Virus record (IMG/VR): IMGVR_UViG_3300036828_000615
Coordinates: 1 to 64,000 of that record
DNA length: 64,000 nucleotides
Strand: one strand, 5' to 3'
Source of the DNA: a virus
Lineage: Duplodnaviria > Heunggongvirae > Uroviricota > Caudoviricetes
Below the pieces are notes generated by a model. The model saw nothing but the letters and a program-made list of their open reading frames with translations, was not told the origin of the DNA and did no database searches. A program made the position numbers and the translations under genes. Within the stretch, counting starts at the first letter, position 1, and each line of letters begins with the position of its first letter. This document shows, in pieces, positions 3,847 to 60,343 of this stretch.

Positions 3847-4325
3847 GCGACATCTTCGAGGACACCCCGGAGACCGACGAGTCCATCGCCTGGGTCAAGC
3901 GACCGGTCAACACCCGTACCATCCGGTCGACCCATGAGTACAAGACCGCACGCGAGCAGTACCGGCTGAAGTGTTCCGTGCACCGCCAGCCCGATGGAAC
4001 CAAGGGCGATCCGTGTGTGATTTGCGGCGAGCGTGTGGACTACAACCTCAGATATCCCCACCCGTTCTCCTGGTCGCTCGAGCATTTGATCTCTGTCAAG
4101 GACCGTCCTGATCTACTGCTCGACGAGAACAACTGGGCCAGTGCCCATTTCGGGTGCAACTCCATGAAGGGCGATGAGGAGTTGGTGCCAGATACTGGGT
4201 CGCCCTCCGAGCTGTGGATCTGGTTACCTCTGGTAACATCTGGTAGTTTTTGGCTATGGAACATGCTGCTGAGCAATGGCGCGGTGTCGTTGGCAGGGAA
4301 GATTATTACGAGGTCAGTAGCTTAG
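3843..4325 (+). CDS. HNH-family nuclease-like protein
   Basis: Motifs CVICGERVDYN...SLEHLISVKD...NWASAHFGCNSMKG. The start is uncertain (GTG 3843 or ATG 3792). Confidence 0.5.
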   Translation: MSDIFEDTPETDESIAWVKRPVNTRTIRSTHEYKTAREQYRLKCSVHRQPDGTKGDPCVICGERVDYNLRYPHPFSWSLEHLISVKDRPDLLLDENNWASAHFGCNSMKGDEELVPDTGSPSELWIWLPLVTSGSFWLWNMLLSNGAVSLAGKIITRSVA

Positions 4326-5014
4326 GGCGCGTCCGATCGGTGTCGCGCACTATCCATCGCCGTGCACGGAATTACGCCCAGAACGGGCGGGTTGTAGTCC
4401 AGTATCTTCCCTCTGTTGTGATGGCTCAGCCGCCAGATGAACAGGGACGCCCTTGTATAACCCTGAAAGCCGGCGGCCCGATGGTGCACACGCGTGTTTG
4501 CCGTCTCGTGGCCGAGGCTTTTCTAGGCCCTGCTCCTGACGGAACAGAGGTCTGCCATTTTCCCGACCGCAGTGTTATGAACAACCGCGTCGAGAACCTG
4601 CGTTGGGATACCCGCCACGAAAATAACCTCGACCAGGTCCGGCATGGAACTCACCGCAACGCCAGGAAGGCAAGATGTAAATTTGGCCATCCTTTTGACG
4701 GTGTCACGAAGGATGGCCGGCGGTTCTGTCGCAGATGCGCCGCAGATAAGGACCTAGAGAGGCGCGCCCTCCGTAATCACTTGCTGCGCGTGCAACGGCG
4801 ACGCGGTAAACCGTCACAGTGCGAACGCTGCGGCCGCACTGCACCGGGACGATACGAGTGGGTCAACATGACAGGAGATCTCCTCAAGGATGAGGACTAT
4901 GTCCGGATGTGCGCGGCGTGTCACCGCTCCTTTGACCGCGAGCGCAACGGTGTTGATGAGACTCTGGAACCAAAGCGCGAAAAATGGAGGGCTTACTACT
5001 ATGCCCGGCAGTGA
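4250..5014 (+). CDS. HNH homing endonuclease (NUMOD4 plus HNH_3)
   Basis: Motifs YYEVSSLGRVRS and HFPDRSVMNNRVENLRWDTRHENNLDQ. The C-terminus is Cys-rich. Confidence 0.8.
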   Translation: MAMEHAAEQWRGVVGREDYYEVSSLGRVRSVSRTIHRRARNYAQNGRVVVQYLPSVVMAQPPDEQGRPCITLKAGGPMVHTRVCRLVAEAFLGPAPDGTEVCHFPDRSVMNNRVENLRWDTRHENNLDQVRHGTHRNARKARCKFGHPFDGVTKDGRRFCRRCAADKDLERRALRNHLLRVQRRRGKPSQCERCGRTAPGRYEWVNMTGDLLKDEDYVRMCAACHRSFDRERNGVDETLEPKREKWRAYYYARQ

Positions 5015-5022
5015 GGAATGAA

Positions 5023-5292
5023 ATGCCCTGGGACGTCGTCAAGGATGACAGCCGCTGCCCCGCCTCCGCGCCGTTCGCCGTGGTCGGCGGCGACGGCGGG
5101 GGCAACAAGCTGTTCGGCTGCCACGCCACCGCGGACTCGGCGCGCCAGCAGCAGAAGGCGCTCTACGCCGCCACCGAGGACGAGCCGGGCCGCACGGGTC
5201 TGACCCCGGATAAGGCCGGAGAACGTGCTGGTGGAACAGGTATGCCGGCGCCCGTGCTGCCCGTCTCCCTGCCGATGACGATCGCGTGGTGA
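5023..5292 (+). CDS. hypothetical protein (89 aa)
   Basis: RBS gaggaatgaaATG. Confidence 0.5.
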   Translation: MPWDVVKDDSRCPASAPFAVVGGDGGGNKLFGCHATADSARQQQKALYAATEDEPGRTGLTPDKAGERAGGTGMPAPVLPVSLPMTIAW

Positions 5293-5531
5293 TACGCGGG
5301 TTCGTCCTCGACCGCGACGAGGACATCAGCGGCGTCAGTGGGACGGGCATCATCGCCGAAGGTGTGGTGTTCTCCGACGGCACCGCCGTGCTGCGCTGGA
5401 CCTGTGAACACACGTCGACCGCCATCTACGACAGCGTCGAGGAACTCATGGCCATCCACGGCCACGGCGGTACTACCCGGCTGCAGTTCCTCGACCGCCC
5501 TGGACGATCTTCACCGTCAGCTCCCGACTGA
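5286..5531 (+). CDS. hypothetical protein (81 aa)
   Basis: GTG start overlapping the upstream stop. Its 3' end overlaps the convergent gene 5473..5688 by 59 nt. Confidence 0.45.
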   Translation: MVIRGFVLDRDEDISGVSGTGIIAEGVVFSDGTAVLRWTCEHTSTAIYDSVEELMAIHGHGGTTRLQFLDRPGRSSPSAPD

Positions 5532-5688
5532 TCCCCACCTGTTTCGCCAGGGTGGTGTAGGAGTAGTCGCCGCTCGCGTAGAGCTGGCAGATCGCCCGGT
5601 CCCGCTGCGCACGGTAATGGCCCGCGAGGTGCACGTGCTCGGAAACTTTCCGGTGACATTCGCGGGCCTGAGCAACGAGACTATCCAT
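5473..5688 (-). CDS. small sigma-70 region-4-like HTH DNA-binding protein (71 aa)
   Basis: Motif YSYTTLAKQVGISRELTVKIVQ. ATGA overlap with the upstream HNH gene. This is the last gene of the minus-strand Ro60 operon. Confidence 0.5.
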   Translation of the reverse strand: MDSLVAQARECHRKVSEHVHLAGHYRAQRDRAICQLYASGDYSYTTLAKQVGISRELTVKIVQGGRGTAAG

Positions 5689-6215
5689 CAGCGCCCCAGA
5701 TGCTGCTCCACAGCGAGCCGAGCAGCGGCTTCCGTTAAATAACTGCCGAGATAGAGCTTCGGTTTGGGGATCGTCACGAATGCATACCATCGGTCAGTGC
5801 GACCAGTTCGCTTGTAGCGATAGACCGTCCACCCTACCGAGTGACCGTCGAATGATTCGTGACATGGCTTGCAGCGCGGCTGGTAATACTGCGGGTCCGC
5901 GCTGTATCGCTTGCCCTCCTCGATTAACTCATTGAGATCGCTGTGGTCATAAGACCATTCGAGCGCCAGGCCACCACAATCAACACAGAGGTGGAGGGTG
6001 GCGTTGCCGCGTTCCCTTCTCACTCTGACGTGAGCGCCGTTGTACCCGATGTTGTCTCCGCGCCATTGCGAATGTTCGACACCGCGCGGCAGTGGCCGCT
6101 TTTCGATCGAACCGTGCTTGCGTATTCGCAGATAGTGCATCTGGCAGTATCCGCCCACATGAACGCGTTTCGAGCACCCCTCTACGCGACAGATAGACGG
6201 CCACTTCCAACCCAT
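5688..6215 (-). CDS. HNH endonuclease with zinc-finger and AP2-like domain
   Basis: Motifs CRVEGCSKRVHVGGYCQMHYLRIRKHG and WYAFVTIPKPKLYLGSYLTEAAARLAVEQH. ATGA overlap with rsr. Confidence 0.8.
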   Translation of the reverse strand: MGWKWPSICRVEGCSKRVHVGGYCQMHYLRIRKHGSIEKRPLPRGVEHSQWRGDNIGYNGAHVRVRRERGNATLHLCVDCGGLALEWSYDHSDLNELIEEGKRYSADPQYYQPRCKPCHESFDGHSVGWTVYRYKRTGRTDRWYAFVTIPKPKLYLGSYLTEAAARLAVEQHLGR

Positions 6216-7913
6216 CAGATTCGTCCACCTGCGAAATCCGAAAGAACGGCCGGTACGTTGGCGTCGAAGCCCGCTATGTCCATCTGCGATGGATCTGTCA
6301 TGTCGGCGATAGACGTGCCGGTCGCGGTGATTGATACGACCGCGAACTTAACGTCGTGGCCGACAAATTCCCGATACGTCTTCAAAGACTGATGTGGATG
6401 GATTTGTCCGAACCAAGTTTCATTGTCGGTATAAATTTGGATCGCGCCGACGTCCAGCTTGTTCTGCATCGCCCACAGCATCGGCAACGCGCAGTCCGTA
6501 CGCCCGAAGCCCAGCGCCGCCATGTAGGAGCACACGTCGTCCAGGCGCCGACGCGGCGTGATGTCCAGCCGACTCGCCACGGAATTGCCGCTCATCCAGC
6601 CGCCGTACCCACCGTGGGAACGCCCGTCGGAGAAGCCGATCACGTCGGCGCCTTTCTCCACGTTGAGCGTCACCAGGCTCATCGCGGCACAGACCTCCCG
6701 GCAGGAGAGCGGCAGGCCCGAGGCCGGGGAGCCCATCGACCCGCTCACGTCCAGCGCCAGCAGCATCGGCACGCCCGAGGGTTCGACCGCGCCGTAGGAC
6801 AGGTAGAAGCCGGTATCCAACGCGTCGGTGATGCGCGGCGTGGGCGTCCAGGTGGAATCGCCGGTCACGCTGCGCCCCGAGGCGTAGGTGCGCTGGGCCA
6901 CCAGCACGTTGATCGGATGGATGCGCCCGCGCTTGAGCGCCGCCGCATCGGTCAGCTGGTTGGCTACCACCAGGCCGACCTTGGAGGTGGTCAGCCCCAG
7001 CCGGGTCAGCCGGGGCAACTGGCGCATCAGCGCCGTGGCCGGCAGTCCCTTGGCGATCAGCGCGTCCCAGATGTCGGGCTCGTTGACCAGCCGGTCGGGC
7101 AGCATCTCCCACGACACGTCGTGGGCGGTGATCAGCCGCACCGCGCCCGCCTTGGTCGCGGTCTGCAGCTCGATGAACGCACTGACCAGATCCGGCAGCG
7201 CCGTGTCGCTCTCGGAGAGCCAGGTCCGGTAGTGCTTCTCCCGGTGACCGGCGTTGACCCGCGCGACCCGCTCGTCGTCGCGCCCGGTCATGGTGTCCAC
7301 GATGTAGCGGTAGAGATTGTCGCGCAGTTGATCGTTGGGTGCCGGGTGGCTCAGCGCCAGCAGGTCGGCGTGGCGCCAGCCCTCGCGCTGGCGGTACTTG
7401 AGGATCTGATACGCCAGCTTGTCCACGGCGCGCCCGTTGTACCAGCCCGCGACGGCGCGCTTGAGCCCGCGGCCCCAGCCACGGAACTGCTCGACGTAGG
7501 ACGCGAACAGATACATGTGCGTGCCGGTGCGGATCACCTGCGGCAGCGCCCCCAGCGCGTAGGCGCGCCCGGCGTCATCGGCCATCGAGGCCGCGATCGC
7601 CAGCGCGAAGATGGCAGGGTTGGCCCGCGGGGCGCGACCGGCCACGGAGATCTCGGTGATCAGGTCCACCAGGGCGACCGGGTCGGTCTGCGCCAGGTTG
7701 ACGACGACCTCGGCGTTCTCCCGCGTCAGCTGGGGGGCCTTGGTGTAGTACGTTCCGCCGGAACTTCCAAGGACGATGAACCGACGCGCGCGTGCCATGT
7801 CGTCGATGGCGAACACATGGCCGCCGGCGGCGTTCTTCACCGTGGCGCCGCCGGCAGGCTGCGACTGCGGCGTGGAGCGGGTGGAAAATCCCTTCAGTAC
7901 GTCGGGCATATGT
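6215..7913 (-). CDS. rsr: Ro60/Rsr orthologue (TROVE domain plus C-terminal vWA domain)
   Basis: The N-terminus MPDVLKGF...FIVLGSSGGTYYTKAPQLTRENAEVV...VAGRAPRANPAIFALAIA matches Ro60 (human FLCFGSEGGTYY...QEGRTTKQEPMLFALAIC). The vWA motif LALDVSGSMGS is present. RBS aaggagatacATATG. The start is at 7913 rather than the track's 8014. Confidence 0.9.
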
Positions 7914-7932
7914 ATCTCCTTTGTATTTAGTT

Positions 7933-8009
7933 GGGACGCGAGCGAAGTAGTAACGGACCGGATGGTTTTCCATGCAAGGGAGATAACCGATCTGTAATCG
8001 GCTCGCGAC
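7933..8009 (-). ncRNA. Y-RNA-like ncRNA unit 6 (stem only, about 77 nt)
   Basis: Terminal stem CGCGAGC...GCUCGCG. Carries the 5' motif CCGAUUACAGAUCGGUUAUCUCCC and the 3' motif GGUCCGUUACUACUUCGCUCGCG. Its 3' end lies about 19 nt upstream of the rsr start. Confidence 0.55.
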
Positions 8010-8020
8010 AACATCTCTAG

Positions 8021-24847: not shown

Positions 24848-25336
24848 CTACGGCGCGGGCGGTGGCGGCGCCGGCGGGGGCGCGGGTGCCAGACCCTGCG
24901 GGGGCCATTGGTCGGCCGGCGTCGGGCCGGCGATCGCCCACGGCACACCCCAGCCATCGGGCACGATGTCGGGGTCCGGTAGCCGGGGATGGTCGGGTTG
25001 GCCGGGGAAGACCCGCCAGCACTGCCAGCCGGCGGCCACCGGCGCGAACCCGCCCCACTCGCAATGGATGTGCATATTCCCCCAAACGCCGGGCCGGATC
25101 TCGGCAGGCTCGAAGCCGTAGTCGCAGTAACCGCCGCCGATGCCGAGGATGTTGGAGCCGCCGCCCACGCCGGGGCACAGCACCAATACCGTGCCGCCGC
25201 CAGGACCGCCCGGAAGCCCCGGCCCCTGTCCGACAATGCCGGGGGCGCCCGGGCCGTCGTCGGCGTCGGCCTCGGGAGAGGTCCACATCAGGCAGAACAC
25301 CGACAGGCCCACTACGGAGAGGATGAGCCGGCGCAT
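24848..25336 (-). CDS. secreted Gly/Pro-rich protein (162 aa) with signal peptide
   Basis: N-terminus MRRLILSVVGLSVFCLMWTSPEADA, followed by a G/P-rich sequence ending APAPPPAPPPPAP. Confidence 0.55.
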   Translation of the reverse strand: MRRLILSVVGLSVFCLMWTSPEADADDGPGAPGIVGQGPGLPGGPGGGTVLVLCPGVGGGSNILGIGGGYCDYGFEPAEIRPGVWGNMHIHCEWGGFAPVAAGWQCWRVFPGQPDHPRLPDPDIVPDGWGVPWAIAGPTPADQWPPQGLAPAPPPAPPPPAP

Positions 25337-25551: not shown

Positions 25552-26082
25552 TTAATCGTCGCGGTCCGTGAGTGGAGGTGGCGACACCAGCGGTTCGTCG
25601 GAGGCGGGCGGGATGCCACCGCTGACCTCGATGTAGCCGGGTTTGAAGACCGGCGGAACCGGCGGCACGCCCTCCGGTGTCGGGCCGCCCGGATACACGC
25701 CTTTCATCATCGCCTCCTCGGAAACGGTGGACATGATCGGAGCCATCGCCTCCTCGGCGCGGACCTTCTTGCGCCACTCGGCGATTGCCATGACCTTCTT
25801 CTGCCTGCCCTGCAGGTACAGCGCGCCGGATGCCACCCACGCGATGACCGCGTTGACCCATTTCTCGGTGGTCACGCTCATGCCGGGGACGGCGATCATG
25901 GTGTTCAGCAGTACCAGCACGCCGCTGACGACGGCAAAGATCAGCGACCAGTTCTCAGCCAGCCAATAGGGTGCCGGTCCTTTGAGCGCGAACCATTTTG
26001 GCAACAGCGGCACGTCGCTGTCGCCCCCGCCACCATCCGGTTCACCCGGTGGGGATTCGTCTACCGGCCCAGTCGTTGACAT
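25552..26082 (-). CDS. holin-like membrane protein (two predicted TM helices)
   Basis: TM segments WSLIFAVVSGVLVLLNTMIAVPG and VNAVIAWVASGALYL. Lies immediately downstream of the lysin. ATG 26082 overlaps the lysin 3' end. Confidence 0.55.
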   Translation of the reverse strand: MSTTGPVDESPPGEPDGGGGDSDVPLLPKWFALKGPAPYWLAENWSLIFAVVSGVLVLLNTMIAVPGMSVTTEKWVNAVIAWVASGALYLQGRQKKVMAIAEWRKKVRAEEAMAPIMSTVSEEAMMKGVYPGGPTPEGVPPVPPVFKPGYIEVSGGIPPASDEPLVSPPPLTDRDD

Positions 26083-28510
26083 GCTGGATCGCGAGCTGGA
26101 CGTAGGTCTGGCCGGGGAACACCTCGCGGAGGTGATATTCAATATGTGGGGCCGTGGGGGGCTGCCAGCAGATGAACTGGATACCGAGCACGCACGCCTG
26201 GATGGCGGCGGCGATGCCTTTGACGGAGATCAGCCGGTCAGTGAGCGGGTTGATCGCGGCCTCGGGAAGCAGCTGCGCCTCCTCGATGTCGATGCCGTGT
26301 CGGTACATGCCGCGCCTCACGTCGTCGTAGGCGTCCCCGTCGAGATTGCCGAGCAGTGCAAGGCAGTTGGCGACGAATGTCTCCTCAAAACCGCCACCAA
26401 GTTCCAGTTCTGTGCAGAGCGTGTACACGTCGCGCATGATTTCCCCGGTCAGGGTGGCGGGCACCCCGGCGTACATGTCGTAGGTGTCGACCAGTTCGCA
26501 CCACTCGTCCCCGAGCAGCGGCAGCCGGAACTGGGCGATCCCTTCACCGTCGGTCGGCGGCCCGCCGTGGAACGTCTTCTCCAGGTGGCGGGACGGGTTC
26601 CCGAACACGTACCCGGCGACATAGTTGGGGCGCAGCAGCGCGAGTCGACCGCCGGGTTCAAACTCCATCCGGACGCGAGACGCCGCCTCGCCACCCTGGC
26701 TGTAGCCGCCGAGGATGACCGGGCGATCGGTGTGGGTCAGGACCCAGTCCACCGCCCAGTCCACACCGATCCTCACCGATTCGGCGTAGCTCACCGGCTT
26801 ACCGAAGCTCCACGGTGCCTGGACTGGGACCTCGTCAGCCACGTCGAGGCAGGCCTGCGCCACGTCGCTGGGGAACCCGACACCCGGTGCCGCCCATGTG
26901 CCGGCGAACGTCAGAATCGCTAATCGCCCAGACCCTCCTCCCCCTCCGGGGTCAGGGGGAAAAGGGGGCACACCACCCGCCAGGACGTTCTTGATGTGCG
27001 CGATGGCGTCGGTGATGCTACGGCCACCCAGCTGCGGCCAGCCGTATCCGTAGCCGTCTTCGCCGACCGGTCCGGCGTTCTGCTCGTAGTCCAGCTTCGC
27101 GTAGTCGAGCGGGGTCTTGGGTGCGGCATACTCAGCGCGCCAGTGCACCGACGACTTGCCCTGCTCCAGCAGATGCAGGATGTCGGACAGCGCGTCCACC
27201 AGGTACAGGTTCTGACCCTGCTCGTTGACACCCAGCTGAGGCCAGCCGGTGCCGTACCCGGTGGCCGGGTCGATGGGTCCGCATTTCTGCTCGTAGTCGA
27301 GTCGGACATAGTCAGGCACCGGTGCCTCCGGGGTGGGGTGGGGCAGGTTGGCGTAGCACGCTGCTTTGGGTGGGATGAGGGTGGCGCACTGGTCGAAGCT
27401 GATCCAGTAGCCGAACGGCTGAAAACCGGAGTCGGCGATCCACACCGCCCGCTGAGCCGGGTTGTCGTCGTAACCGGCGCAGGTGACGTAGTGGTAGATG
27501 GTCCCGCCGCCGTAGCTGGGGGACTGTGACCCTTTGATGCCGACCGGGTAGTTCGCCGGTGGGGCGACCCAGTTCATCACGATCCCGTACCCGGAGTTGA
27601 TGGACCGCAGGATGCCGTCCCACAGCCGGTCCTTCTCGTCTTGGGTGGGTGGGTCGTGGGGGGCGTCGACGCTGGTGTAGTTGGCCTCGGGCAGCCGGGG
27701 GTCCAGGCACCGTTCGATCAGCGCCACATAGTCGGTGCCGCCGGTGTCGGTGCCGCACTCGGCAGCCAGCTGCGATTCGGGGACATAGATACCCCGGATC
27801 GAGAGGCACACCTGAGCCGACGCGGGGCCGCACCAGTAGCCGGTTTCCTGCGGGACGATGTTGTGGTCGTAGTTCAGTACCTTCTCACCCACGAGTGGGA
27901 TGCCTCCTTCGGATGCGGCCTGCTGGTCAAGCAACCCGAGGAGCCGGTCGCCCATCCCCAGGCAGTATTCATATCGCTGCGCCCGGTCCTCCAGGCCGTT
28001 GTAGCCGCCGTTGATGGCGAACGTCGCACCCTCGATATCCCGCGCGTCCGCGTAGTCGTTCATCGGCCGCTGCGTCGTCCAGTACCAGGTCACGCCGTGG
28101 AAGCCGTTGGTGTCGCTGGCCAGCTCCTCGGGCAGGTCCACGAAGAACGTCGGAGTGGGGACCAGTCCCTCGCCGAACGCCCACCCCGAGCACTCGGTGT
28201 AGTTGTACTTGCCGGTGACCATGATCGGCCCGCGTCCGTGGTAGCGCGCGCCGTCGCCGGGGGAGCAGTTGCCGAGGTCGTCGCAGCGGTTTTCCAGGTA
28301 GGCGTAGTTGTCGCCGTCCCAGTCCTGTTCCTCCATGTAGAGCAGGCCCGCCGACTCGTGCCCGGTCTGGGCGCACCACATGGCGATGCGGTCCACAGAG
28401 GTGGCGTCGCATTCGTGCAGGCATTGCGCGGTCGCCGGGGCCAGCTGCGCATAGCGGTCGGGGGTGGTTCCCCACTGCATCGCCTCGCCGAGCAGGTCCG
28501 CGTAGCTCAC
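26042..28510 (-). CDS. multidomain endolysin: GH19 glycosidase, C39-like Cys peptidase, two roughly 45-aa repeats, and a cutinase-like LysB esterase (LysA-LysB fusion)
   Basis: GH19 motifs QTGHESAGLLYMEE and YHGRGPIMVTGKYNY. Peptidase motif ETGYWCGPAS. Repeats LDYEQ..GP...GYG.GWPQLG x2. Linker GGGGGSG. Esterase motif GYSQGG. Confidence 0.85.
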   Translation of the reverse strand: MSYADLLGEAMQWGTTPDRYAQLAPATAQCLHECDATSVDRIAMWCAQTGHESAGLLYMEEQDWDGDNYAYLENRCDDLGNCSPGDGARYHGRGPIMVTGKYNYTECSGWAFGEGLVPTPTFFVDLPEELASDTNGFHGVTWYWTTQRPMNDYADARDIEGATFAINGGYNGLEDRAQRYEYCLGMGDRLLGLLDQQAASEGGIPLVGEKVLNYDHNIVPQETGYWCGPASAQVCLSIRGIYVPESQLAAECGTDTGGTDYVALIERCLDPRLPEANYTSVDAPHDPPTQDEKDRLWDGILRSINSGYGIVMNWVAPPANYPVGIKGSQSPSYGGGTIYHYVTCAGYDDNPAQRAVWIADSGFQPFGYWISFDQCATLIPPKAACYANLPHPTPEAPVPDYVRLDYEQKCGPIDPATGYGTGWPQLGVNEQGQNLYLVDALSDILHLLEQGKSSVHWRAEYAAPKTPLDYAKLDYEQNAGPVGEDGYGYGWPQLGGRSITDAIAHIKNVLAGGVPPFPPDPGGGGGSGRLAILTFAGTWAAPGVGFPSDVAQACLDVADEVPVQAPWSFGKPVSYAESVRIGVDWAVDWVLTHTDRPVILGGYSQGGEAASRVRMEFEPGGRLALLRPNYVAGYVFGNPSRHLEKTFHGGPPTDGEGIAQFRLPLLGDEWCELVDTYDMYAGVPATLTGEIMRDVYTLCTELELGGGFEETFVANCLALLGNLDGDAYDDVRRGMYRHGIDIEEAQLLPEAAINPLTDRLISVKGIAAAIQACVLGIQFICWQPPTAPHIEYHLREVFPGQTYVQLAIQHVNDWAGRRIPTG

Positions 28511-36429: not shown

Positions 36430-39400
36430 TTACATGTAGGCGCGGATCCAGACTCCACCATCGCCACCCTTACCGCCAGGACCTGCGGCCAGCGCGTTGA
36501 AGTAACCCCAGATACCACCGCCGCCACCGCCGCCCGGAGCGTTCCCGTTGGCGCTGGCGGCGGGTTGTGCTCCACCGCCGTAGTAGATCCCGGCGTAACC
36601 GTCGGCACCCGTCAAGGGCTGGTTACCGGGTGAGAGCCCGGTAGTGGAGCCTGCTGCCGAGGAGCCGCCATTGGCGGTGATGGTGGTGTGCCCGGTCATG
36701 GCCACCTGCGATTGCGCGCCCGCACTGCCGCTGGGAAAGCCACCGCCGCCAGCACCGCCTATCCCGCCCGCGCCGATGGTGACGGTGAAGCTGGTGGTGC
36801 TGGTGGGGATGTCAACGCCATAGACGAGGGTCACCGGCGTCGCCCAGATTCCGGCACCACCGCCGACACCGTTGGACGGACCGCCGCCGCCCTGCCCGCC
36901 CATGCCCGCGCCGACCACCAGGATGTCGAAGTGGTTTCCCGCTTTCATCCACGACGGGACGCTGTAGGTGTAGGAGCCCGCCGCCGCGTACTGCGTCACA
37001 AGTGGTGCATAGGTCGTGGCCGCGGCCGCGCCGGACAGCGCCATCCATGGCACGGTCTGCGACCAGGTGGGGCTGGGGATGCTGCTGGGCGGCGCGGCCG
37101 GTGCCGGGTTGAGCGGGACGGCGACCGAGCCCCAGGACGCCGCCGACGAGAGCGTCGCCGAGATGGTGACGCTCGCCGCCCCCGCCGCGTCACCCATCAC
37201 ACACGAGCCGTAGCTGCTGGCACCGCTGGCGACGTTTTGGCGCTGAGTTTGGTTGTAGGCGCTCAACGTCAGAGACACGTTTGCCTGCACCACGCCGAAC
37301 ATCTGGACGATGCGACCACCTGTCGCACCGCTGGTCACGGTGTGTGACGGCGCTGCCGTTGACCCGTTTGCTGTTTGCGCCGTGCCGAACGACGCGACGT
37401 TCGTGTACGTGTCGACACCGACGCTGAGGTAGGCGGCGTCACTGGCGAGCGGGTTCGGTGTTGCGGTGGTGGTAATGGTCTGTGCCCCGGTGGGCGGGTT
37501 GATCAGCCCATACAGGGCCACGGTAGAGCAGACCCCGCCGACGGGACCGTACTGATACACACCGAGCTGGGCGAGGGTTGTGCTGCCGATCTTGCAGGAA
37601 ATCGTCGGTGCGCTAGTGGTGTTTGCTGCCGTGACGACGGTGACTCCGACGACAAGCGCGGTCGCGGTGGCGGCGATGGTGACATTGGTGTTCTGGGTGG
37701 CTGCCCCCGCGACCGCAACGTTGGTTCCAGCCGGGGCAGCGTCGATGGCGATGGTCCCGGCGCTGATGGCCCGCGTGACGGCGAGTTGCTTCGGGTACGC
37801 GGTGGGGTGGCCCGCGCTGGGCAGCCAGGCGTGGTTGATCCCGGCGAGGCTATAGGTGCCGGTGCCCGCGATGACCACCTCCATGGCGTAGTAGGTGTTC
37901 TGCTGCGCGGTGAGGTAGTTGGCAGCCGGGATCGCGAGGTTGACCCAGGTCGGCGACGATCCACCGAGAGTGATGTTGCCCACGACATTAGGTGACGCGT
38001 ACACCAGGGTCAGCGCCCCGGTGGAGCCGTTCATCGAGTAAATGTTGTAGTAGACGCCGGTGATGGTGGCCGGACCGTAACCCAGCCACTCCACGCTCTG
38101 CTTGACCCCGGCATCGGGGGTGCCGATGATTCCCATCGCGCTCTGGGCGGCGGTGACCGAGACGGTGGTGGCCGACGACGAGCCGCTAATGCTGGACAGC
38201 GGAAACACCGAATCGGCGGTGGGGTCGATCGCGTTGTAGGACGGCTTGGTCACCGCCCGGTTGTTCAAGCTGGTCTGGTTGGTGCCGGTGGTACCCGCGA
38301 CCGAGTTGGTGGGCGGCGTGGTCTGATTGCCGAAGTTGAACCCGAGGTAACCCATCGCCTGGTTGAACACCGACGCAAGCTGGCCGACCGCGTTGCCGCT
38401 GCCGGTACCACCCGTGACGCCCTGGATGGTCTTGTCGACAGTGGACTGAAACGCCGTGGTCACGTCGGTCAGCACGCCACCGATAGGGCTCTGCACATTA
38501 AGCCCAGGGATGAAGCTCCCCAGGGTGGGCTGGCTGTAGATCCTGGTCATCATGTCCTGCAGCCCGGCGAACAGGGAGCTGACCGGGTTGCCGGTGTTGG
38601 TACTACTGGCTGGGGTGCCGTTGATCGGGATGGCTATGCCGCCCCACAGGCTCGACGTGGTGCAGGAGAAGTTGACGCTGGCCGCGCCGGGTGCGTCGCC
38701 GATCACCAGCGGAAGCCCGGCCCCGGCGGTGAACGGCTGGTTGGACCGCTGCGTCTGATTGAACCCGGTGAGGTTGGTCGCGTATCCGCCGAACGCCGCC
38801 ACCACCCGGTCGTAGGAATTGGTGCCGCTCACCGTCAGGGACGGCGTGGTGTTGGTTGAACTGAAGGCGGTGACGGGAGTGCCGAACGACACCGCGCTGC
38901 TGAAGGACTCGGAGTTGATGGACATCGCTACAGAGTTCGATGCCGACGCATAGATCTGCTGGACTCCGGTGGGTGCGTTCTGCAGGACGAACGCAAAGAG
39001 GTAGAGGACGGGCGCCGAAGAATAGCTCACAGAGGCGACTTGCGTCATCAGCGGGCCGGACGACCCACCGATCCTCACGGTGAGAGTGCCTGGCGTATCG
39101 TACGTCGACACGAACACCACGGCGTTCGGGCCGGTGATGGTGTGGTTCTCGGTGACGACCGTGCTACTTAATTGGACACCGGCACCGACCGCGTCGAAAA
39201 CCACCGGAATAGCCGGTCTGCTCGCCCCGTACAGACCTTGGCTGAACAGGTCGGTGAGTGACTGGGCGTGGGTTTCCTCCACGCAGCGGACGTCGTCTAA
39301 GTAGTAGGTTTGGGCACCGGCATTCTGGCCGGAGAATCCGACTATGCCGCACGCTATATCGTATCCAGGGGGAATCTGCACCCACCCGGACATCTTCATC

Positions 39401-42400
39401 CACCCGGTTGTGGAAATCGCCGTAAAATTGACCGACTGCGCCCAGATGCTCGTTTGGACAGATCCGCCGGAGGCGTAATTAACGACGAAAACTCCGAGAT
39501 AGGCGCCTCCAGTCGTTGTGGTGTTGGTGGATTTGGCCCTGATGTACAGCTCGATGTTGAACCATTGTCCCGGCTGGCATCTCGTCATCGCGTCATAAAG
39601 CTGTGTTGTGACGGGGGTGGTGGGCGCAAAGAACACAACGTCGTACTGGGTGGATACGTCCGTGGAGGTCTGGACGGAATACGAATGAGTCCCGCTGTGT
39701 GCCTGGGCGGTCGTGTAGCCGAACGCCGCATCGACAGGGGTTCCGTAGCTGCCGGTGAAGCGCGTGACCGTGGTGTCCTCGAAGTCCGGGGAGAGCACCA
39801 GGTTGGTTCCGGAAGCCCTTGCGGCCTGCCACAGCGTCTGCGGCAGCAAGCCCGGCGACATCGCGTTGGCGAATGTGCCGGTGATGATCTTGGTGGCGTC
39901 CAGGCCGGGGATCCAGTTGGCGTTGGTGATGGCGTCGGTCAGCCTGCTGCCGCTCAAGCCACCCAGCCATGTCGAGGTCAGGGCCGGGATGATGTTCTGG
40001 TCGGTGATGGCCCCGGTCAGCCGGGTGCTATGGATGGTGTTGGTCCACGCGGAGGTGAGGGTTGGTATCCAGTTCTGGTTGGTGATGGCGCTGGACAGTT
40101 GGCTGCCCGCCAATGTCGCGGTGGTGATGGCGTTACGCAGCAACCCGCCGTCGACAGTGTTCACCCACGCCGACGTGAGGGCGGGGATGAAGTTCTGATT
40201 CGTGATCGCGGACGTGAGCTGGCTGCCCGCGATGCCGACGGCGACGTTGATGGCACCGGTCAGTAGGCTCCCATGGATGGTTCCGCCCCAGGTAGAGGTG
40301 AGCGCCGGTATCCAGTTCTGATTGGTGATGGCCGAGCCCAGTAGGTTGCCGGCGATCGTCTTGCCCCATGCCGAGGTCAAGGCCGGGATGACCGTCTGAT
40401 CGGTGATGGCACCGACGAGCTTGCTGGCGTGGAAGCTGTTGACCCAGGTGCTGGTCAGCGCCGGAATGATGTTTTGATCCGTGATGGCACCCAGCAGTTT
40501 CGCGCCGCTCAAGGTGCCCACCCACGTCGAGGTGAGCGCGGGAATGACGTTCTGGTCGGTGATCGCCCCGAACAGTTTGGACGCGTGAAGGGAGTTGACC
40601 CACGTGCTGGTCAGGGCCGGGATCACGTTCTGGTCCGTGATCGCGCCGACAAGCTTGGAGGCGTGGAATGTGTTGATCCAGGTCGAGGTCAGCGCGGGAA
40701 TGATGTTCTGATCGGTGATAGCCCCGGTCAGCCGCCAGCCGTGAATGGTTCCCGTCCAGGCGCTTGTCAGGGCCGGGATGATGTTCTGATCTGTGATGAG
40801 GCCCAGCAGCTTGCTGCCACTGAGAGTGCCCAGCCAGGTGGACGTCAAGGCCGGGATTACGTTCTGGTCGGTGATCGCGCCGACGAGCTTGGAAGCGTGA
40901 AAACTGTTGATCCATGTGCTGGTCAGCGCCGGGATGATGTTCTGGTCGGTGATGGCCCCAGTGAGCCGCCAGCCGTGGATGGTGCCGGTCCAGGCCGAGG
41001 TGAGCGCGGGGATGATGTTCTGATCGGTGATGAGACCGAGCAGCTTGCTGCCACTGAGGGTTCCGAGCCATGTCGACGTCAGCGCCGGTATGACGTTTTG
41101 GTCAGTGATGGCTCCGAACAACTTGGAGGCGTGTAGCGAGTTCACCCAGGTTGATGTCAGGGCGGGGATCACGTTCTGATCCGTGATCGCCCCGACGAGC
41201 TTGGAGGCGTGGAAGCTGTTGATCCACGTCGAGGTCAGCGCCGGAATGATGTTTTGATCGGTAATGGCCCCGGTCAAGCGCCACCCGTGGATCGTGCCCA
41301 GCCACGCGGACGTGAGAGCCGGGATCACGTTCTGATCCGTGATGAGACCCAGCAGCTTGCTGCCGCTCAGAGTGCCCAGCCACGTGCTGGTCAACGCGGG
41401 GATGACATTCTGATCGGTGATCGCACCGAACAGCTTGGAGGCGTGCAACGAGTTGACCCAGGTCGAGGTAAGCGCGGGAATGATGTTCTGATCGGTGATA
41501 GCCCCGGTTAGTCGCCACCCATGAATGGTCCCCAGCCACGCAGAGGTGAGGCTGGGGATGATGTTCTGGTCCGTGATCAGGCCGAACAGCTTGGACGAGT
41601 GAATCGAGTTGACCCATGTGCTGGTCAGGGCCGGGATGATGTTCTGATCGGTGATGGCGCCCAGGAGCCTGCTGCCGTGCAACGTCCCGAGCCATGAGGA
41701 CGTCAGGGCCGGGATGTGCAGCTGGTCGATGAGCTTGGTGATCGGGTCCATCGGGGCCAGCAGGTTGGCCGGATGAAGCATGTTGGTGATGAACGTGTTG
41801 ATCGCGGTCGTCACATCGAACGCGACATCGGAAAGGGTTGGCAGGCCCAGCATCGCGGTCAGGTTGCTGAAGTAAACGCTGGGGTCCAGCATGTTGTTGA
41901 CGAAGTTGTTGATCGCGTTCTCGATATCGAACGAGACATCTGCCAACGTGGGCAAGCCCAGCATCTCGGTGAGATTGTGGAAGAACGTGTCCAGCTGGGT
42001 GACGTTGAGGATGCCGCCCAGGCCGACCGAGTTGAGGATGGCCTGCAGGATGTCCTGCTGCGCCGAGGTGTCGATCACCGCGATGTCGTCGATGTAGACG
42101 ATGTCGCCGGTGGGGATGTCGCTCTCGAAGCGCAGGACGAAGTCGGCACTGTCGTAGTTGTAGGTGCTGGGCACGGTGACCTTGCCGCGCATCCAGGTCC
42201 ACTGGCCCGGTGTGGGCATCGTGATACGGGTGGCGCTCACCTCGGAGCTGGGGTCGGAGCCGCTGGACTCGGTGGCGATCATCACCAGGTCGAGATGCCC
42301 GGTGCCGGCGGTGGTGGTGGCCGTGTCGGGCCAGACGAACGCCTCGACGTCGAAGGTCTGCCCGGACTTCACGTACTGGGTCAGCGGACCCACCTGGTTG

Positions 42401-43251
42401 CGCAGCAGATGCCCGTCGCGGGTGGTGCCGTCCGCGGTGATCTTCATCGAGTGCGTGCCGGTGCGCGCGTGGTCGGTGGACTGCGTGCCCATGATCGCGC
42501 CGGGCCACACCAGCGTCGTCTCGAAGCTGGGGTCGAGCACCAGGTTCAGGCCGGTCCGCCAGTGCAGCATGAACATGTCGAAGCCGGTCAGCAGGTTCGT
42601 CGGCATCAGTTGGTGCTCAATGAAATTGATGATCGACGCGCCCGCATCAGTGAGGTCGGACAGCCAACCGGACGGGTTACCCAGGAAGGCGTAGAAGAAC
42701 CCGAACAGCTTCTGCACTTCGTCGTAGGATGCGGTCCCCGCCCCGAAGCCAAACGCGTTCATGATCGCGTCGATCAGGGACTGGACTGCTTCGGTCCCCC
42801 CGGCGATCAGGTCCAGCGCCAGGTTCTCCAGCGGGATGAACCCGGTCACGCCGCCGGAGTGGGTGGCGTCGGATACCAGTGTCGCCAGCAGGTTGCTCGG
42901 CTTGAGCATGTCCTCGATGAAGGTGACGATCGCGCCCACCGGATCGAAGTTCGGGTCCAGCGGGTTGAGTTCACCCAGGAATGTCCACAGGTTGGAGAAC
43001 ATCGAGGTGAGCTTGCTCCAGTCGGCGTTGAGCGTGGTGATGTCCACGCCGGGGAACAGGCTGCCGATGATCTTATCCACGATCGCCTGCAGCGCGTCCC
43101 AGATGACCTGGGCGGTGTTCTTGCCCAGCTTGCCGATGACGTCTTCGACACCCTGGTCGATCTGCTGGAGTGGATTCTTGTCGACCTTGAACAGGTTGGT
43201 GCCGGTCGCCGGGACTTGCCCGGAGAACAGGTCGATCGCGCCGAAGGCCAT
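36430..43251 (-). CDS. giant minor tail protein (2273 aa): about 23 tandem 26-aa repeats, CBM-like modules, Gly-rich C-terminus
   Basis: Repeat ITDQNIIPALTSTWVNSxHASKLFGA. N-terminal repeats of type F(I/V)xxML.P.NLL. C-terminal GGGGPSNGVGGGAG...GGGGGGGIWGYF. Confidence 0.85.
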   Translation of the reverse strand: MAFGAIDLFSGQVPATGTNLFKVDKNPLQQIDQGVEDVIGKLGKNTAQVIWDALQAIVDKIIGSLFPGVDITTLNADWSKLTSMFSNLWTFLGELNPLDPNFDPVGAIVTFIEDMLKPSNLLATLVSDATHSGGVTGFIPLENLALDLIAGGTEAVQSLIDAIMNAFGFGAGTASYDEVQKLFGFFYAFLGNPSGWLSDLTDAGASIINFIEHQLMPTNLLTGFDMFMLHWRTGLNLVLDPSFETTLVWPGAIMGTQSTDHARTGTHSMKITADGTTRDGHLLRNQVGPLTQYVKSGQTFDVEAFVWPDTATTTAGTGHLDLVMIATESSGSDPSSEVSATRITMPTPGQWTWMRGKVTVPSTYNYDSADFVLRFESDIPTGDIVYIDDIAVIDTSAQQDILQAILNSVGLGGILNVTQLDTFFHNLTEMLGLPTLADVSFDIENAINNFVNNMLDPSVYFSNLTAMLGLPTLSDVAFDVTTAINTFITNMLHPANLLAPMDPITKLIDQLHIPALTSSWLGTLHGSRLLGAITDQNIIPALTSTWVNSIHSSKLFGLITDQNIIPSLTSAWLGTIHGWRLTGAITDQNIIPALTSTWVNSLHASKLFGAITDQNVIPALTSTWLGTLSGSKLLGLITDQNVIPALTSAWLGTIHGWRLTGAITDQNIIPALTSTWINSFHASKLVGAITDQNVIPALTSTWVNSLHASKLFGAITDQNVIPALTSTWLGTLSGSKLLGLITDQNIIPALTSAWTGTIHGWRLTGAITDQNIIPALTSTWINSFHASKLVGAITDQNVIPALTSTWLGTLSGSKLLGLITDQNIIPALTSAWTGTIHGWRLTGAITDQNIIPALTSTWINTFHASKLVGAITDQNVIPALTSTWVNSLHASKLFGAITDQNVIPALTSTWVGTLSGAKLLGAITDQNIIPALTSTWVNSFHASKLVGAITDQTVIPALTSAWGKTIAGNLLGSAITNQNWIPALTSTWGGTIHGSLLTGAINVAVGIAGSQLTSAITNQNFIPALTSAWVNTVDGGLLRNAITTATLAGSQLSSAITNQNWIPTLTSAWTNTIHSTRLTGAITDQNIIPALTSTWLGGLSGSRLTDAITNANWIPGLDATKIITGTFANAMSPGLLPQTLWQAARASGTNLVLSPDFEDTTVTRFTGSYGTPVDAAFGYTTAQAHSGTHSYSVQTSTDVSTQYDVVFFAPTTPVTTQLYDAMTRCQPGQWFNIELYIRAKSTNTTTTGGAYLGVFVVNYASGGSVQTSIWAQSVNFTAISTTGWMKMSGWVQIPPGYDIACGIVGFSGQNAGAQTYYLDDVRCVEETHAQSLTDLFSQGLYGASRPAIPVVFDAVGAGVQLSSTVVTENHTITGPNAVVFVSTYDTPGTLTVRIGGSSGPLMTQVASVSYSSAPVLYLFAFVLQNAPTGVQQIYASASNSVAMSINSESFSSAVSFGTPVTAFSSTNTTPSLTVSGTNSYDRVVAAFGGYATNLTGFNQTQRSNQPFTAGAGLPLVIGDAPGAASVNFSCTTSSLWGGIAIPINGTPASSTNTGNPVSSLFAGLQDMMTRIYSQPTLGSFIPGLNVQSPIGGVLTDVTTAFQSTVDKTIQGVTGGTGSGNAVGQLASVFNQAMGYLGFNFGNQTTPPTNSVAGTTGTNQTSLNNRAVTKPSYNAIDPTADSVFPLSSISGSSSATTVSVTAAQSAMGIIGTPDAGVKQSVEWLGYGPATITGVYYNIYSMNGSTGALTLVYASPNVVGNITLGGSSPTWVNLAIPAANYLTAQQNTYYAMEVVIAGTGTYSLAGINHAWLPSAGHPTAYPKQLAVTRAISAGTIAIDAAPAGTNVAVAGAATQNTNVTIAATATALVVGVTVVTAANTTSAPTISCKIGSTTLAQLGVYQYGPVGGVCSTVALYGLINPPTGAQTITTTATPNPLASDAAYLSVGVDTYTNVASFGTAQTANGSTAAPSHTVTSGATGGRIVQMFGVVQANVSLTLSAYNQTQRQNVASGASSYGSCVMGDAAGAASVTISATLSSAASWGSVAVPLNPAPAAPPSSIPSPTWSQTVPWMALSGAAAATTYAPLVTQYAAAGSYTYSVPSWMKAGNHFDILVVGAGMGGQGGGGPSNGVGGGAGIWATPVTLVYGVDIPTSTTSFTVTIGAGGIGGAGGGGFPSGSAGAQSQVAMTGHTTITANGGSSAAGSTTGLSPGNQPLTGADGYAGIYYGGGAQPAASANGNAPGGGGGGGIWGYFNALAAGPGGKGGDGGVWIRAYM
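39900..41725. repeat. 78-bp tandem coding repeats with higher-order (3-unit) organisation
   Basis: At least 22 near-identical 78-bp units encoding the 26-aa repeat. Three sub-types recur in order: VNSLHASKLFG / LGTLSGSKLLG / LGTIHGWRLTG. Confidence 0.85.
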
Positions 43252-50451: not shown

Positions 50452-51627
50452 TCACCGGCTCCGCTTAAACCTTTGTGGGATTATGGCGACTATCACTCCG
50501 TTGGGGTCGCTGTGCGCCACCGTCAGGTTGGTCACCGTCTGCGGTGGTACAGCAAACATAAATTTATTATTCCACTGAAGCTGCAGCGGAACGCCCTGGT
50601 TGGCGATGCCGGACAGGAAGAAGTCCAGCACCATCGACTGCCGGATCAGGTCGAACACCAGGGAGTCCTTCGGATCGGCCGCCGAGGTCAGGGTGCGCTT
50701 GGAGGGCTCGGTGTCACACAGGTAGGTGCCCATCGAGGGCGCGGTCTGCGGCAGCGCCACCAGCCGGGTCGAGTCGTTGTCCTGCACAATGGCCTGCCCG
50801 GGACTGGACACCAGAAAGCTCACGTAGCTCGGCAGGTCGCCGCGGTTGGCGATCGGCAGGGTGCCCCAGTAGAACTCGCTCATCCCGGTCAGCTCGTCGA
50901 CGAACGTGACCAGCCCGCTCAGGATGCCCCCGCCCTGCGGGTAGACCTTGGGCGGGCCGGCGTTGGCCGCCGAGAACGTCTTGTACAGCGAGGGCTTGGT
51001 GAAGTACGGGCGCGCCGCCAGCCAGGTGATGTCCCACTGGCTCGCGTTGTTGCCGTAGGCGACCGGGTCGATCTTCTGCGCGCTCTTGACCGTTTCCTGC
51101 GGGCGCACCGGAATCCAGCGCCAGCCCGAGTAGCGCGTGTAGACGCCCATCCAGCCGTCGTTGGCCTCATCCTGGCCGGCCCACCAGTTGTCCTCGGCCA
51201 GCCGGTACTGGTACTCGGTCATCGGCGGAGCCTGGGTGCCCACGATGATGCCCAGGTCGAACTGACGCTCGGGGATGTTCTGGCGTTCGATACTGGCGCC
51301 GAACATGTAGGGGCTGTTGACCAGCACCTGCTTGAAGGGCCACTGCTGATCACCCTGCAGCTGGGTGGCCAGCCGAACCCCCTCACGGCCCTTGTTCGGC
51401 CCGGCCAGGTTGAACACCCGGGACAGGTCGGGCACCAGGTACACCAGGTGCGTCATCATGCCGCGCACCTGCGGCGGCAGCTGCAGGAAGCTCACCGGTG
51501 CGACCAGCTCGGGGAGATAGGCCGTCGAGTAGCTACCCTGCGGCCAGTTCGTCTGCACCCCGCCGACGGTGACCAGCCGGGGGGCGATGGCGGCGCGGGT
51601 CATGCCACGCGGGCGCGAAGTGGTCAT
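50452..51627 (-). CDS. minor tail protein (distal-tail-like, 391 aa)
   Basis: ATGA overlap with the TMP stop. Lies immediately downstream of the TMP. Confidence 0.7.
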   Translation of the reverse strand: MTTSRPRGMTRAAIAPRLVTVGGVQTNWPQGSYSTAYLPELVAPVSFLQLPPQVRGMMTHLVYLVPDLSRVFNLAGPNKGREGVRLATQLQGDQQWPFKQVLVNSPYMFGASIERQNIPERQFDLGIIVGTQAPPMTEYQYRLAEDNWWAGQDEANDGWMGVYTRYSGWRWIPVRPQETVKSAQKIDPVAYGNNASQWDITWLAARPYFTKPSLYKTFSAANAGPPKVYPQGGGILSGLVTFVDELTGMSEFYWGTLPIANRGDLPSYVSFLVSSPGQAIVQDNDSTRLVALPQTAPSMGTYLCDTEPSKRTLTSAADPKDSLVFDLIRQSMVLDFFLSGIANQGVPLQLQWNNKFMFAVPPQTVTNLTVAHSDPNGVIVAIIPQRFKRSR

Positions 51628-59765: not shown

Positions 59766-60343
59766 CAGATCGTCCTGACTTTCGTGGTGCCGGGCCTAGC
59801 CGGTGCCGCGTTGGCGTACCGCTGCGCATCGCGGCGGTCGGCCTCCTCCCAGGTGATCACATCAGCCGGGAAGAACTGGGTGCCCCGCAGTGGATCCTCG
59901 GGCCGTTGGGCCACCCCGGGCCGGGCGTAGGGCTCGGTCATCGTCGCGATCCCGGCGTTCTGCTCGGCCATGTTGGCGAGCAGCTGCGCCTCCTGTGACC
60001 AACCGCCGTCGAGCCAGTGGCGCACCGACGAGCCGGGCGGTGCGCCGACGACGACGGACACCATCTCGGCCAGCGTCAGCGCATTGACGTCCCGGTTCAG
60101 CGCCATCACGTCGCGGTGGAAGGCATGCCAGCAATCGCCCACGACGTGCGCCAGCATCACGATTCCCCCGGCGGTCCCACCTGCGTCTGCGGCGACACGG
60201 CCGGCGCGAACCAGCCCTCGAAGAACCTGGCCTGCTCGATGTCGGGGAGCAGGGTGACCCGCTCCTGCACCCGGTCGGGCACTCTGGCCAGATCCATCCA
60301 TTCCAGGCTCATCTGGACCTGGTCGAACTTGCGCAGCTTCCAC
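59765..60343 (-). CDS. tail assembly chaperone T-portion, probably expressed by -1 frameshift from the G frame near 60170-60190
   Basis: The first 60 aa of the ORF are out-of-frame junk. The real sequence is WHAFHRDVMALNRDV...onwards. G-run ccgccgggggaa at the G stop. ATGA overlap with the TMP start. Confidence 0.55.
   Translation of the reverse strand: MEAAQVRPGPDEPGMDGSGQSARPGAGAGHPAPRHRAGQVLRGLVRAGRVAADAGGTAGGIVMLAHVVGDCWHAFHRDVMALNRDVNALTLAEMVSVVVGAPPGSSVRHWLDGGWSQEAQLLANMAEQNAGIATMTEPYARPGVAQRPEDPLRGTQFFPADVITWEEADRRDAQRYANAAPARPGTTKVRTI

Follow-up and report, generated by a model that had tools for sequence, protein, structure and literature searches.

LysA and LysB are the textbook components of mycobacteriophage lysis, where they are separate proteins, and both are under development as anti-mycobacterial enzymes. 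In the canonical cassette, as present in D29, Ms6 and the Cluster K-like phages Peanam and Asayake, the gene order is lysA, lysB, holin. Here we describe a gene for an endolysin of 822 amino acids (aa) in which LysA continues, within a single polypeptide, into a predicted LysB-type esterase. The gene resides in a 64,000-nucleotide (nt) stretch of DNA, termed the window, which comprises positions 1–64,000 of IMG/VR record IMGVR_UViG_3300036828_000615 and to which all coordinates refer. With the canonical cassette the locus shares not only the gene order but also the GH19 domain, the C39-like 'N5' peptidase, the GXSXG Ser-Asp-His triad of LysB and the beta1 strand with which LysB starts. It differs in that these modules are united in one chain, whereas in the nearest cultured phages lysA and lysB are two genes that share a 4-nt overlap of the ATGA type, and their LysA has C39 in front of GH19 and another C-terminal wall-binding region. 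An esterase occurs in none of the 25–26 LysA organisations that have been catalogued for cultured mycobacteriophages (Payne & Hatfull, PMC3314691).

Other described systems resemble the locus in single aspects. LysBs with an N-terminal peptidoglycan-binding domain of their own (Ms6 LysB, PMC8309991; also L019, L023 and DismalFunk) likewise have their esterase tethered to the wall. In these cases the tether is part of a free-standing LysB, while in the window the tether and two peptidoglycan hydrolases come from the fusion with LysA. The lysA gene of Ms6 (PMC3111421) is a single lysis gene with two products of different length, as we propose for those relatives of the window gene whose lysB is in the -1 frame, and perhaps also for the window gene. 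However, Ms6 achieves this by internal in-frame initiation and not by frameshifting, and both products are peptidoglycan hydrolases without an esterase. Actinophage lysis proteins with a DUF4185/GH183 endo-D-arabinanase (Gordonia phage GMA6; PMC10115798) also contain an enzyme for the arabinogalactan/mycomembrane layer inside a multidomain lysis protein, but this is a glycosidase of another fold that cuts arabinan and not an esterase releasing mycolates. Metagenomic lysins in which the same C39-like peptidase, in some cases together with GH19, is joined to DUF4185/GH183 (P0038–P0045 and P0117) offer a different solution for joining LysA to an enzyme of the arabinogalactan layer. Finally, the -1 frameshift of the tail assembly chaperone genes (G/GT) is comparable with regard to overlapping open reading frames (ORFs), a second ORF in the -1 frame without a start, a heptamer at the junction and a common N-terminus of the products. 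Here, lysis enzymes are concerned, the heptamer is C_CCU_UUN, and frameshifting is inferred from sequence. Neither a natural LysA-LysB fusion nor frameshifting in a lysis cassette was found in a literature collection of 8 million papers, where matches to 'fusion' referred to capsid-protease fusions, engineered constructs and membrane fusion. Each module is familiar by itself; what is new is their union in one chain and, in relatives, the recoding that apparently produces it.

The window is part of a siphovirus-type actinophage genome with a GC content of 65%. Its genes include those for a tape measure protein of 2,713 aa, for several minor tail proteins with kinship to mycobacteriophage families and for an RNA-binding protein resembling Ro60. 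A scan of the whole window yielded neither a tRNA nor an Rfam match. No close DNA relative was detected among 50,697 deposited phage records in a DNA-level search, the sole match being a stretch of 540 nt from the C39 region with ~73% identity. The endolysin gene and its parts are arranged as follows.

26042–28510, minus strand: fused endolysin gene, 822 aa, GTG start, stop codon at 26042–26044 (ORF list; full-length homolog P0001 and about ten more homologs of 770–850 aa)
27929–28483, minus strand: GH19 glycoside hydrolase domain of LysA type (aa ~10–194; PF00182), acidic residues of GHES...YMEE conserved
27323–27898, minus strand: C39-like cysteine peptidase of LysA 'N5' type (aa ~205–396), Cys in YWCGPAS (aa 225–231), His in HYVTCAGYDD (aa 340–349)
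27167–27313, minus strand: repeat 1, Rv3766_C-type module (aa ~400–448; DY.(R/K)LDYEQ..GP...GYG.GWPQLG; pairwise alignment, PF27131 in homologs)
26981–27106, minus strand: repeat 2, Rv3766_C-type module (aa ~469–510), presumed cell-wall-binding module
26927–26980, minus strand: Pro/Gly-rich interdomain linker (aa 511–528, ...LAGGVPPFPPDPGGGGGSGR), resembling the -1-frame linker peptides of relatives
26045–26926, minus strand: LysB-type cutinase-fold serine esterase (predicted; aa 529–822), beginning at the conserved beta1 strand AILTFAGTW
26699–26701, 26477–26479 and 26144–26146, minus strand: candidate catalytic residues of the esterase, Ser604, Asp678 and His789, respectively

In full agreement with the preliminary description, which had been made from the letters of the sequence, the ORF list and a motif search place all of the motifs it had named in this single ORF: GHESAG at aa 50, YMEE at aa 58, YHGRGP at aa 90, YWCGPAS at aa 225, HYVTCAGYDD at aa 340, LDYEQ at aa 404 and 473, GWPQLG at aa 422 and 490, GGGGGSG at aa 522 and GYSQGG at aa 602. 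GC at third codon positions (GC3) amounts to 0.86 for the ORF, which is typical for real genes of this window. The proposed GH19 domain matches PF00182 with an E-value (E) of 6.6e-8 and 33.1 bits, above the curated cut-off of 25.5. Furthermore, phmmer against the PDB aligns the N-terminal ~190 residues with the solved GH19 domains of mycobacteriophage LysA, 9hnv (E 1.7e-48) and 9hqw (E 3e-38), and the acidic residues of GHES...MEE are conserved in the alignment to both. The peptidase assignment was borne out by PF13529 (Peptidase_C39_2; E 1.6e-13, 51.9 bits, cut-off 24) and by the 'endolysin' families PHROG 1519 and 6007, and the columns of the Cys (YWCGP) and His (HYV) are nearly invariant in two homolog alignments. 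Note that the family is 'C39-like': the bona fide, bacteriocin-processing peptidase C39 (PF03412) was not matched, and there is no transporter context. The order of glycosidase before peptidase, previously considered atypical, is so in comparison with cultured mycobacteriophages, as the Cluster K-like phages have C39 followed by GH19; within the metagenomic family of the window protein, GH19 in first position is the rule.

The two repeats of roughly 45 aa that had been noticed before align with each other at 45% identity (E 8e-12). In homologs they carry the recent Pfam family PF27131 'Rv3766_C' (precomputed annotation in a large protein database), while the isolated repeat region of the window protein gave nothing in Pfam or PHROG. 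AlphaFold (AF2) models the module confidently, with a predicted local distance difference test score (pLDDT) of 88, and no solved structural relative was found. We presume that it binds the cell wall, judging only by the fact that LysA proteins carry it at their C-terminal end.

The C-terminal part, aa 529–819, matches PHROG 102 'endolysin' with E 1e-66. In tblastn searches, aa 529–820 showed up to 38.5% identity (E 9e-36) to annotated lysin B genes of many mycobacteriophages, and matches to lysin B genes of Mycobacterium prophages and, in HMMER, to Cluster K LysB proteins (E ~1e-20) were also obtained. The AF2 model of the domain (pLDDT 87.3, predicted template modelling score 0.84) has the D29 LysB crystal structure 3HC7 as its best PDB match in Foldseek (E 3.8e-10, template modelling score 0.68 on the target); the next matches are to cutinases, acetyl-xylan esterases and Rv3802c, a cutinase-like protein of mycobacteria. 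In a 49-sequence alignment Ser604 of GYSQG, Asp678 (Asp152 of the domain) and His789 (His263 of the domain) are invariant. The start of the domain coincides with that of free-standing LysBs, as evident from the alignment to deposited phage genes (...GRLAILTFAGT versus MSKPMLLTAAGT). Sequence and fold matches thus support the prediction that the C-terminal domain is a LysB-type mycolylarabinogalactan esterase, as originally proposed. The substrate is not readable from the sequence, and a second, infection-stage role has recently been reported for D29 LysB (PMC13463830). The domain might be a cutinase-like lipase with another role, acting for example on free outer-membrane lipids or in superinfection. 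With phage LysBs as the best matches in both fold and sequence, and with the domain placed in a lysis cassette next to a holin-like gene, we regard this as highly improbable.

Among 50,697 deposited records searched, all phages with matches to the two halves of the window protein (Cluster K-like Anayavirus and Timquatrovirus) indeed encode LysA and LysB by separate, adjacent genes that overlap by 4 nt or leave a short gap. The fusion could be suspected to be an artefact: in most relatives lysB lies in the -1 frame of lysA, the junction of the window is located within a homopolymer-rich tract, C5T4C5, and an extra T in this tract would falsely join the two genes of a true -1-type genome. When one T is removed from the T4 run (26960–26963), a perfect -1-type junction (C_CCT_TTC) results, with a LysA that ends in ...PPFPLTPEGEEGLGD* and a transframe product identical to the present protein. 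Still, neither a stop codon nor a frame break is present across the junction, and independent contigs carry the same in-frame fusion. The closest relative, P0002 (L009), is a 771-aa in-frame fusion on an independent IMG/VR contig that has a different N-terminal catalytic module and is 92–94% identical over the shared part. At the junction, the DNA of the window and L009 differs by substitutions and by a 3-nt indel in the linker (TTTC in L009 versus TTTT in the window; the L009 linker is one codon shorter), and both remain in frame, which excludes a shared homopolymer error. P0001 (L008), again from an independent contig, is an 828-aa in-frame fusion with 76% identity at 99% coverage, and a metagenome-scale protein search yielded about ten more fused proteins of 800–850 aa with the same C-terminal esterase and other N-terminal catalytic modules. 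We thus state with confidence that the ORF is a genuine LysA-LysB fusion in a single polypeptide and not an assembly artefact; an erroneous extra T is extremely unlikely.

Comparison of the window protein with P0002, P0016 and P0013 also revealed that proteins with much the same backbone of C39-like domain, repeats and LysB have exchanged their N-terminal catalytic module: it is GH19 in the window, a GH25-like start in P0016 and, although the sequence downstream is 92–94% identical, an unassigned lysozyme-like domain in P0002. Recombination has its boundary immediately ahead of the C39-like domain. In P0037 (878 aa, 3.3-kb Logan contig), a Cluster-K-type LysA with C39, GH19 and the K-type C-terminal region runs in frame into a LysB-like esterase. 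This protein, on one short contig, may represent an independent LysA-LysB fusion.

A fused gene could in principle serve for co-expression and co-export only, with the protein being a precursor that is cut in its Gly-rich linker by the C39-like peptidase itself or by a host protease, setting LysA and LysB free. True C39 peptidases cut after Gly-Gly, the linker contains GGGGG and follows a C39-like domain, and the linkers of fused homologs are Gly-rich as well. However, some of these homologs, e.g. P0001, have linkers without a Gly run, and the PF13529 domains of LysA are held to cleave peptidoglycan as peptidases (Payne & Hatfull 2012, PMC3314691). We therefore consider a polyprotein unlikely and prefer an enzyme that acts as one chain.

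The ~550-aa 'unfused' relatives (P0003, P0009 and others) proved not to be ordinary two-gene cassettes. In L004 and L005, the beta1 strand of LysB, which free-standing LysBs (D29-type and Cluster K among them) always include, is encoded in the -1 frame; it falls within a tail of the LysA ORF that is not conserved, and no start codon precedes it. Another 54 loci were gathered from collections of viruses, genomes and metagenomes, and all junctions were classified. At all 24 distinct out-of-frame junctions lysB is in the -1 frame, and each of them has an X_XXY_YYZ heptamer, in phase, in the stretch from the point at which the -1 frame opens to beta1. Twenty-three loci have C_CCT_TTA or C_CCT_TTC as the heptamer; L033 has A_AAT_TTA in the same place. 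Such heptamers occur 25 times in the 800 codons of the permitted interval as opposed to twice in 8,907 codons elsewhere in the same LysA ORFs. Their codons are rare: CCT accounts for 7.8% of the Pro codons elsewhere, and the TTA of the heptamer is the only TTA of the ORF in L013, L017 and L027. In many cases the heptamer is precisely where the -1 frame opens, several loci having the closing TGA immediately 5' of it, and no ATG, GTG or TTG is present between this opening and beta1 in 19 of the 24 junctions (20 of 25 when L063 is included). The 0-frame LysA tails of these loci resemble nothing. The linkers predicted after a -1 slip are rich in Pro and Gly like the in-frame linkers (L054, PPDPGGGGGTPTERH; window, PPDPGGGGGSGRL; P0013, ...GGTPTDRH).

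The heptamer is absent where lysB has a start of its own, as in the controls L001, L019–26, L058–61 and L065; free-standing LysBs of this kind occur in Cluster K phages, in Mycobacterium prophages and in L065, which belongs to the same clade. Among the in-frame fusions it is kept in the window and L009 and lost in L008 and L018, and the cases known as protein only lack the Pro-Pro-Phe motif. When the esterase domains are placed in a neighbour-joining tree, all coupled arrangements fall into a single clade. In-frame fusions have two or more origins within this clade, and the window, L009 and L008 group together in the midst of -1 types. C_CCU_UUA is an established slippery site of giardiavirus, and CCCTTTA, CCCTTTT and AAATTTA are on a published list of heptamers that function in vivo (bioRxiv 10.1101/2021.04.23.441185).

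These findings suggest that the relatives would produce LysA-LysB by -1 ribosomal frameshifting, a prediction to which we give rather more credence than doubt. Alternatively, their lysB may be translated independently, from a non-canonical start or by termination-reinitiation at the LysA stop, and the heptamer may be retained only for a Pro-Pro-Phe/Leu motif of LysA. The position of the LysA stop would suit reinitiation, as it lies 9 nt into beta1 in ~13 loci, often inside beta1 codons (CTG-ACN). A constraint at the protein level would permit synonymous codons, though, whereas CCC-CCT-TT(A/C) is invariant in spite of the rare CCT and TTA. In L033 its place is taken by a canonical slippery heptamer of another kind, whose codons specify Asn-Leu instead. 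The 19 junctions without a start codon ahead of beta1, the frequent opening of the -1 frame right at the heptamer and the in-frame fusions, in which the same product is hard-wired, also argue against independent translation, which we deem unlikely. A GGTGAG/GGGGAG sequence upstream is conserved, but it also encodes Gly-Glu.

Several points weigh against frameshifting and the interpretation built on it, and some of these are at the same time points for independent translation. A GTG or TTG is found at or beside beta1 in five -1-type loci, where independent initiation is possible. Folding of the 70 nt after the heptamer in 26 loci revealed no conserved stimulatory RNA structure (z-scores from -2.4 to +1.7, around 0), and the junction has no Rfam match. 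By codon-position GC, the linker agrees better with the LysA frame (GC3 0.88) than with the LysB frame (0.57). This test is confounded and uninformative because a Pro/Gly-rich -1-frame peptide forces such a pattern; GC3 of the window's own in-frame linker is ~0.5. The count of 24 out of 24 overstates independence because the loci are phylogenetically related, and the tree that nests the window group among the -1 types has no support values. Furthermore, the evidence for slippage at C_CCU_UUN is eukaryotic, not actinobacterial (bioRxiv 10.1101/2021.04.23.441185). As to the esterase, Pfam (Cutinase PF01083, PE-PPE) was silent even at E <= 10, also for the isolated C-terminal region, such that of the domains to be checked by profile searches GH19 and C39-like passed the Pfam thresholds and the cutinase-type domain did not. 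Weak, sub-threshold Cutinase matches (E ~3e-4) appeared only in the homologs P0016 and P0037. Precomputed Pfam annotation is missing for annotated LysBs too, many accepted LysBs being similarly divergent. Lastly, the whole case for the fused enzyme and for frameshifting was made in silico.

Taking these points into account, we consider it probable that the window contains, in hard-wired form, the LysA-LysB protein that its relatives make by -1 frameshifting. This explanation covers the domains, the mechanism and the origin. In a first step of lysis, the downstream holin-like protein would permeabilise the membrane. One and the same lysin molecule could then cut glycan and peptide bonds of the peptidoglycan, as is to be expected from what is known about LysA and LysB (PMC6116114, PMC3314691), and hydrolyse the ester that anchors the mycolic acids of the outer membrane to arabinogalactan. 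The wall-binding repeats of LysA would deliver the esterase to the wall and hold it there, at a fixed 1:1 stoichiometry. As to the origin, lysB may have lost its own start codon in an ancestral lineage and may then have been read as a C-terminal extension of LysA via a -1 ribosomal frameshift at the conserved C_CCU_UUN heptamer. In the sub-lineage of the window, comparison with the relatives points to a gain of 1 nt just after the heptamer, which would have led to constitutive fusion. The host of this uncultivated siphovirus-type phage is probably a mycolic-acid-containing actinobacterium, Mycobacterium or a close relative.

The window has retained its own copy of the heptamer, together with a stop codon in the -1 frame.

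26960–26966, minus strand: C_CCT_TTT heptamer (codons Pro516 and Phe517), in X_XXY_YYZ phase with the ORF and homologous to the -1 junction heptamer of the relatives
26952–26954, minus strand: TGA in the -1 frame, three codons past the heptamer (frame translation); a -1 shift would yield a LysA-only product of 519 aa ending in ...PPFSP

This heptamer is either a relic or a still-active slippery site. In the fused gene, CCT is used for 4 of 62 Pro codons and TTT for 4 of 20 Phe codons. The -1-frame stop is kept in L009 (TAA, ~4351–4353), where the 0 frame has Asn (AAC) in place of Asp (GAC) in the window, so that the G/A substitution preserves the stop; this is suggestive, as a single comparison. 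Judged from its sequence, the window site might still slip and give the 519-aa LysA-only product, which we regard as possible but doubtful. Equally tentative is the idea that the group sets the ratio of LysA to LysA-LysB by -1 frameshifting at C_CCU_UUN and that the polarity is inverted in the window and L009, with the 0 frame giving the 822-aa bifunctional enzyme and the slip giving the 519-aa LysA-only protein. If so, recoding would constitute a tunable switch between one-enzyme and two-enzyme lysins.

Gene callers start -1-type lysB genes at the first downstream GTG or TTG (P0122; L005, 6680–7504), whereby beta1 and the following loop, ~25–30 residues, are lost. Many database 'LysB' entries of this clade are probably N-terminally truncated annotations. 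P0121, a close LysB gene call, has a GTG just ahead of beta1, and a look-up of its locus returned no record.

Downstream of the lysin gene, two further genes deserve mention.

25552–26082, minus strand: gene for a holin-like membrane protein, 176 aa from ATG 26082 (alternative TTG 26142 for the longest ORF), overlapping the 3' end of the lysin gene by 41 nt
24848–25336, minus strand: gene for a conserved 162-aa putative secreted protein, 60–67% identity beside lysA/lysB in ~30 related loci (tblastn)

The overlap of 41 nt given in the preliminary description is correct when the ATG at 26082 is taken as the start. Two transmembrane segments had been assigned to the holin-like protein; only one strong hydrophobic segment (aa ~45–66) and a weaker one (aa ~74–90) were found, and at 176 aa the protein is longer than holins usually are. 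Pfam and PHROG searches assigned it to no family. A holin-like gene directly follows the lysin gene also in L008, L009, L027 and L065, and we infer the designation 'holin' from position, hydrophobic segments and synteny only. The 162-aa protein, likewise without a Pfam or PHROG family, has a signal-peptide-like N-terminus and a core rich in Gly, Pro, Trp and Cys (e.g. L005, 4498–4836; L030, 3953–4300). Its gene is located either upstream of lysA or downstream of the holin-like gene, and it may be an unrecognised component of the lysis cassette. Upstream of the lysin gene, tail-fibre-like genes are transcribed divergently. A scan of 23.5–29.3 kb for promoters and terminators gave nothing above expectation.

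Elsewhere in the window, a tail assembly chaperone pair (60157–60732, minus strand, and downstream to 59766) is located upstream of the tape measure gene, and its second ORF is open in the -1 frame. Its junction has no canonical X_XXY_YYZ heptamer but a G-run (CCGGGGGAATCGTGA) at the end of the first ORF and is uninformative as an internal comparator. Two structural genes are very long, those for the 2,713-aa tape measure (51624–59765, minus strand) and for a 2,273-aa minor tail protein (36430–43251, minus strand). The Ro60/TROVE-like RNA-binding protein (phrog_850) is encoded at 6215–8014 on the minus strand, and no Y-RNA-like Rfam match was found in the window. In the relative L063, a gene for a TROVE/vWA_Ro60 protein (4153–5865) adjoins the lysis cassette.

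Enzymes of the LysA and LysB type have so far been combined artificially (e.g. PMC8107382). A natural, evolutionarily maintained fusion would mean that two peptidoglycan hydrolases, a wall-binding module and a mycolate esterase can work from one chain. It would provide a scaffold, already assembled by nature, on which to build enzybiotics that target Mycobacterium and related bacteria, and it bears on the route by which LysB reaches its substrate. If most relatives have no lysB other than a -1 transframe extension of lysA, gene callers would systematically mis-annotate these lysB genes as N-terminally truncated, as in P0122, which starts after beta1, and programmed frameshifting in tailed phages would reach beyond the tail-chaperone genes.

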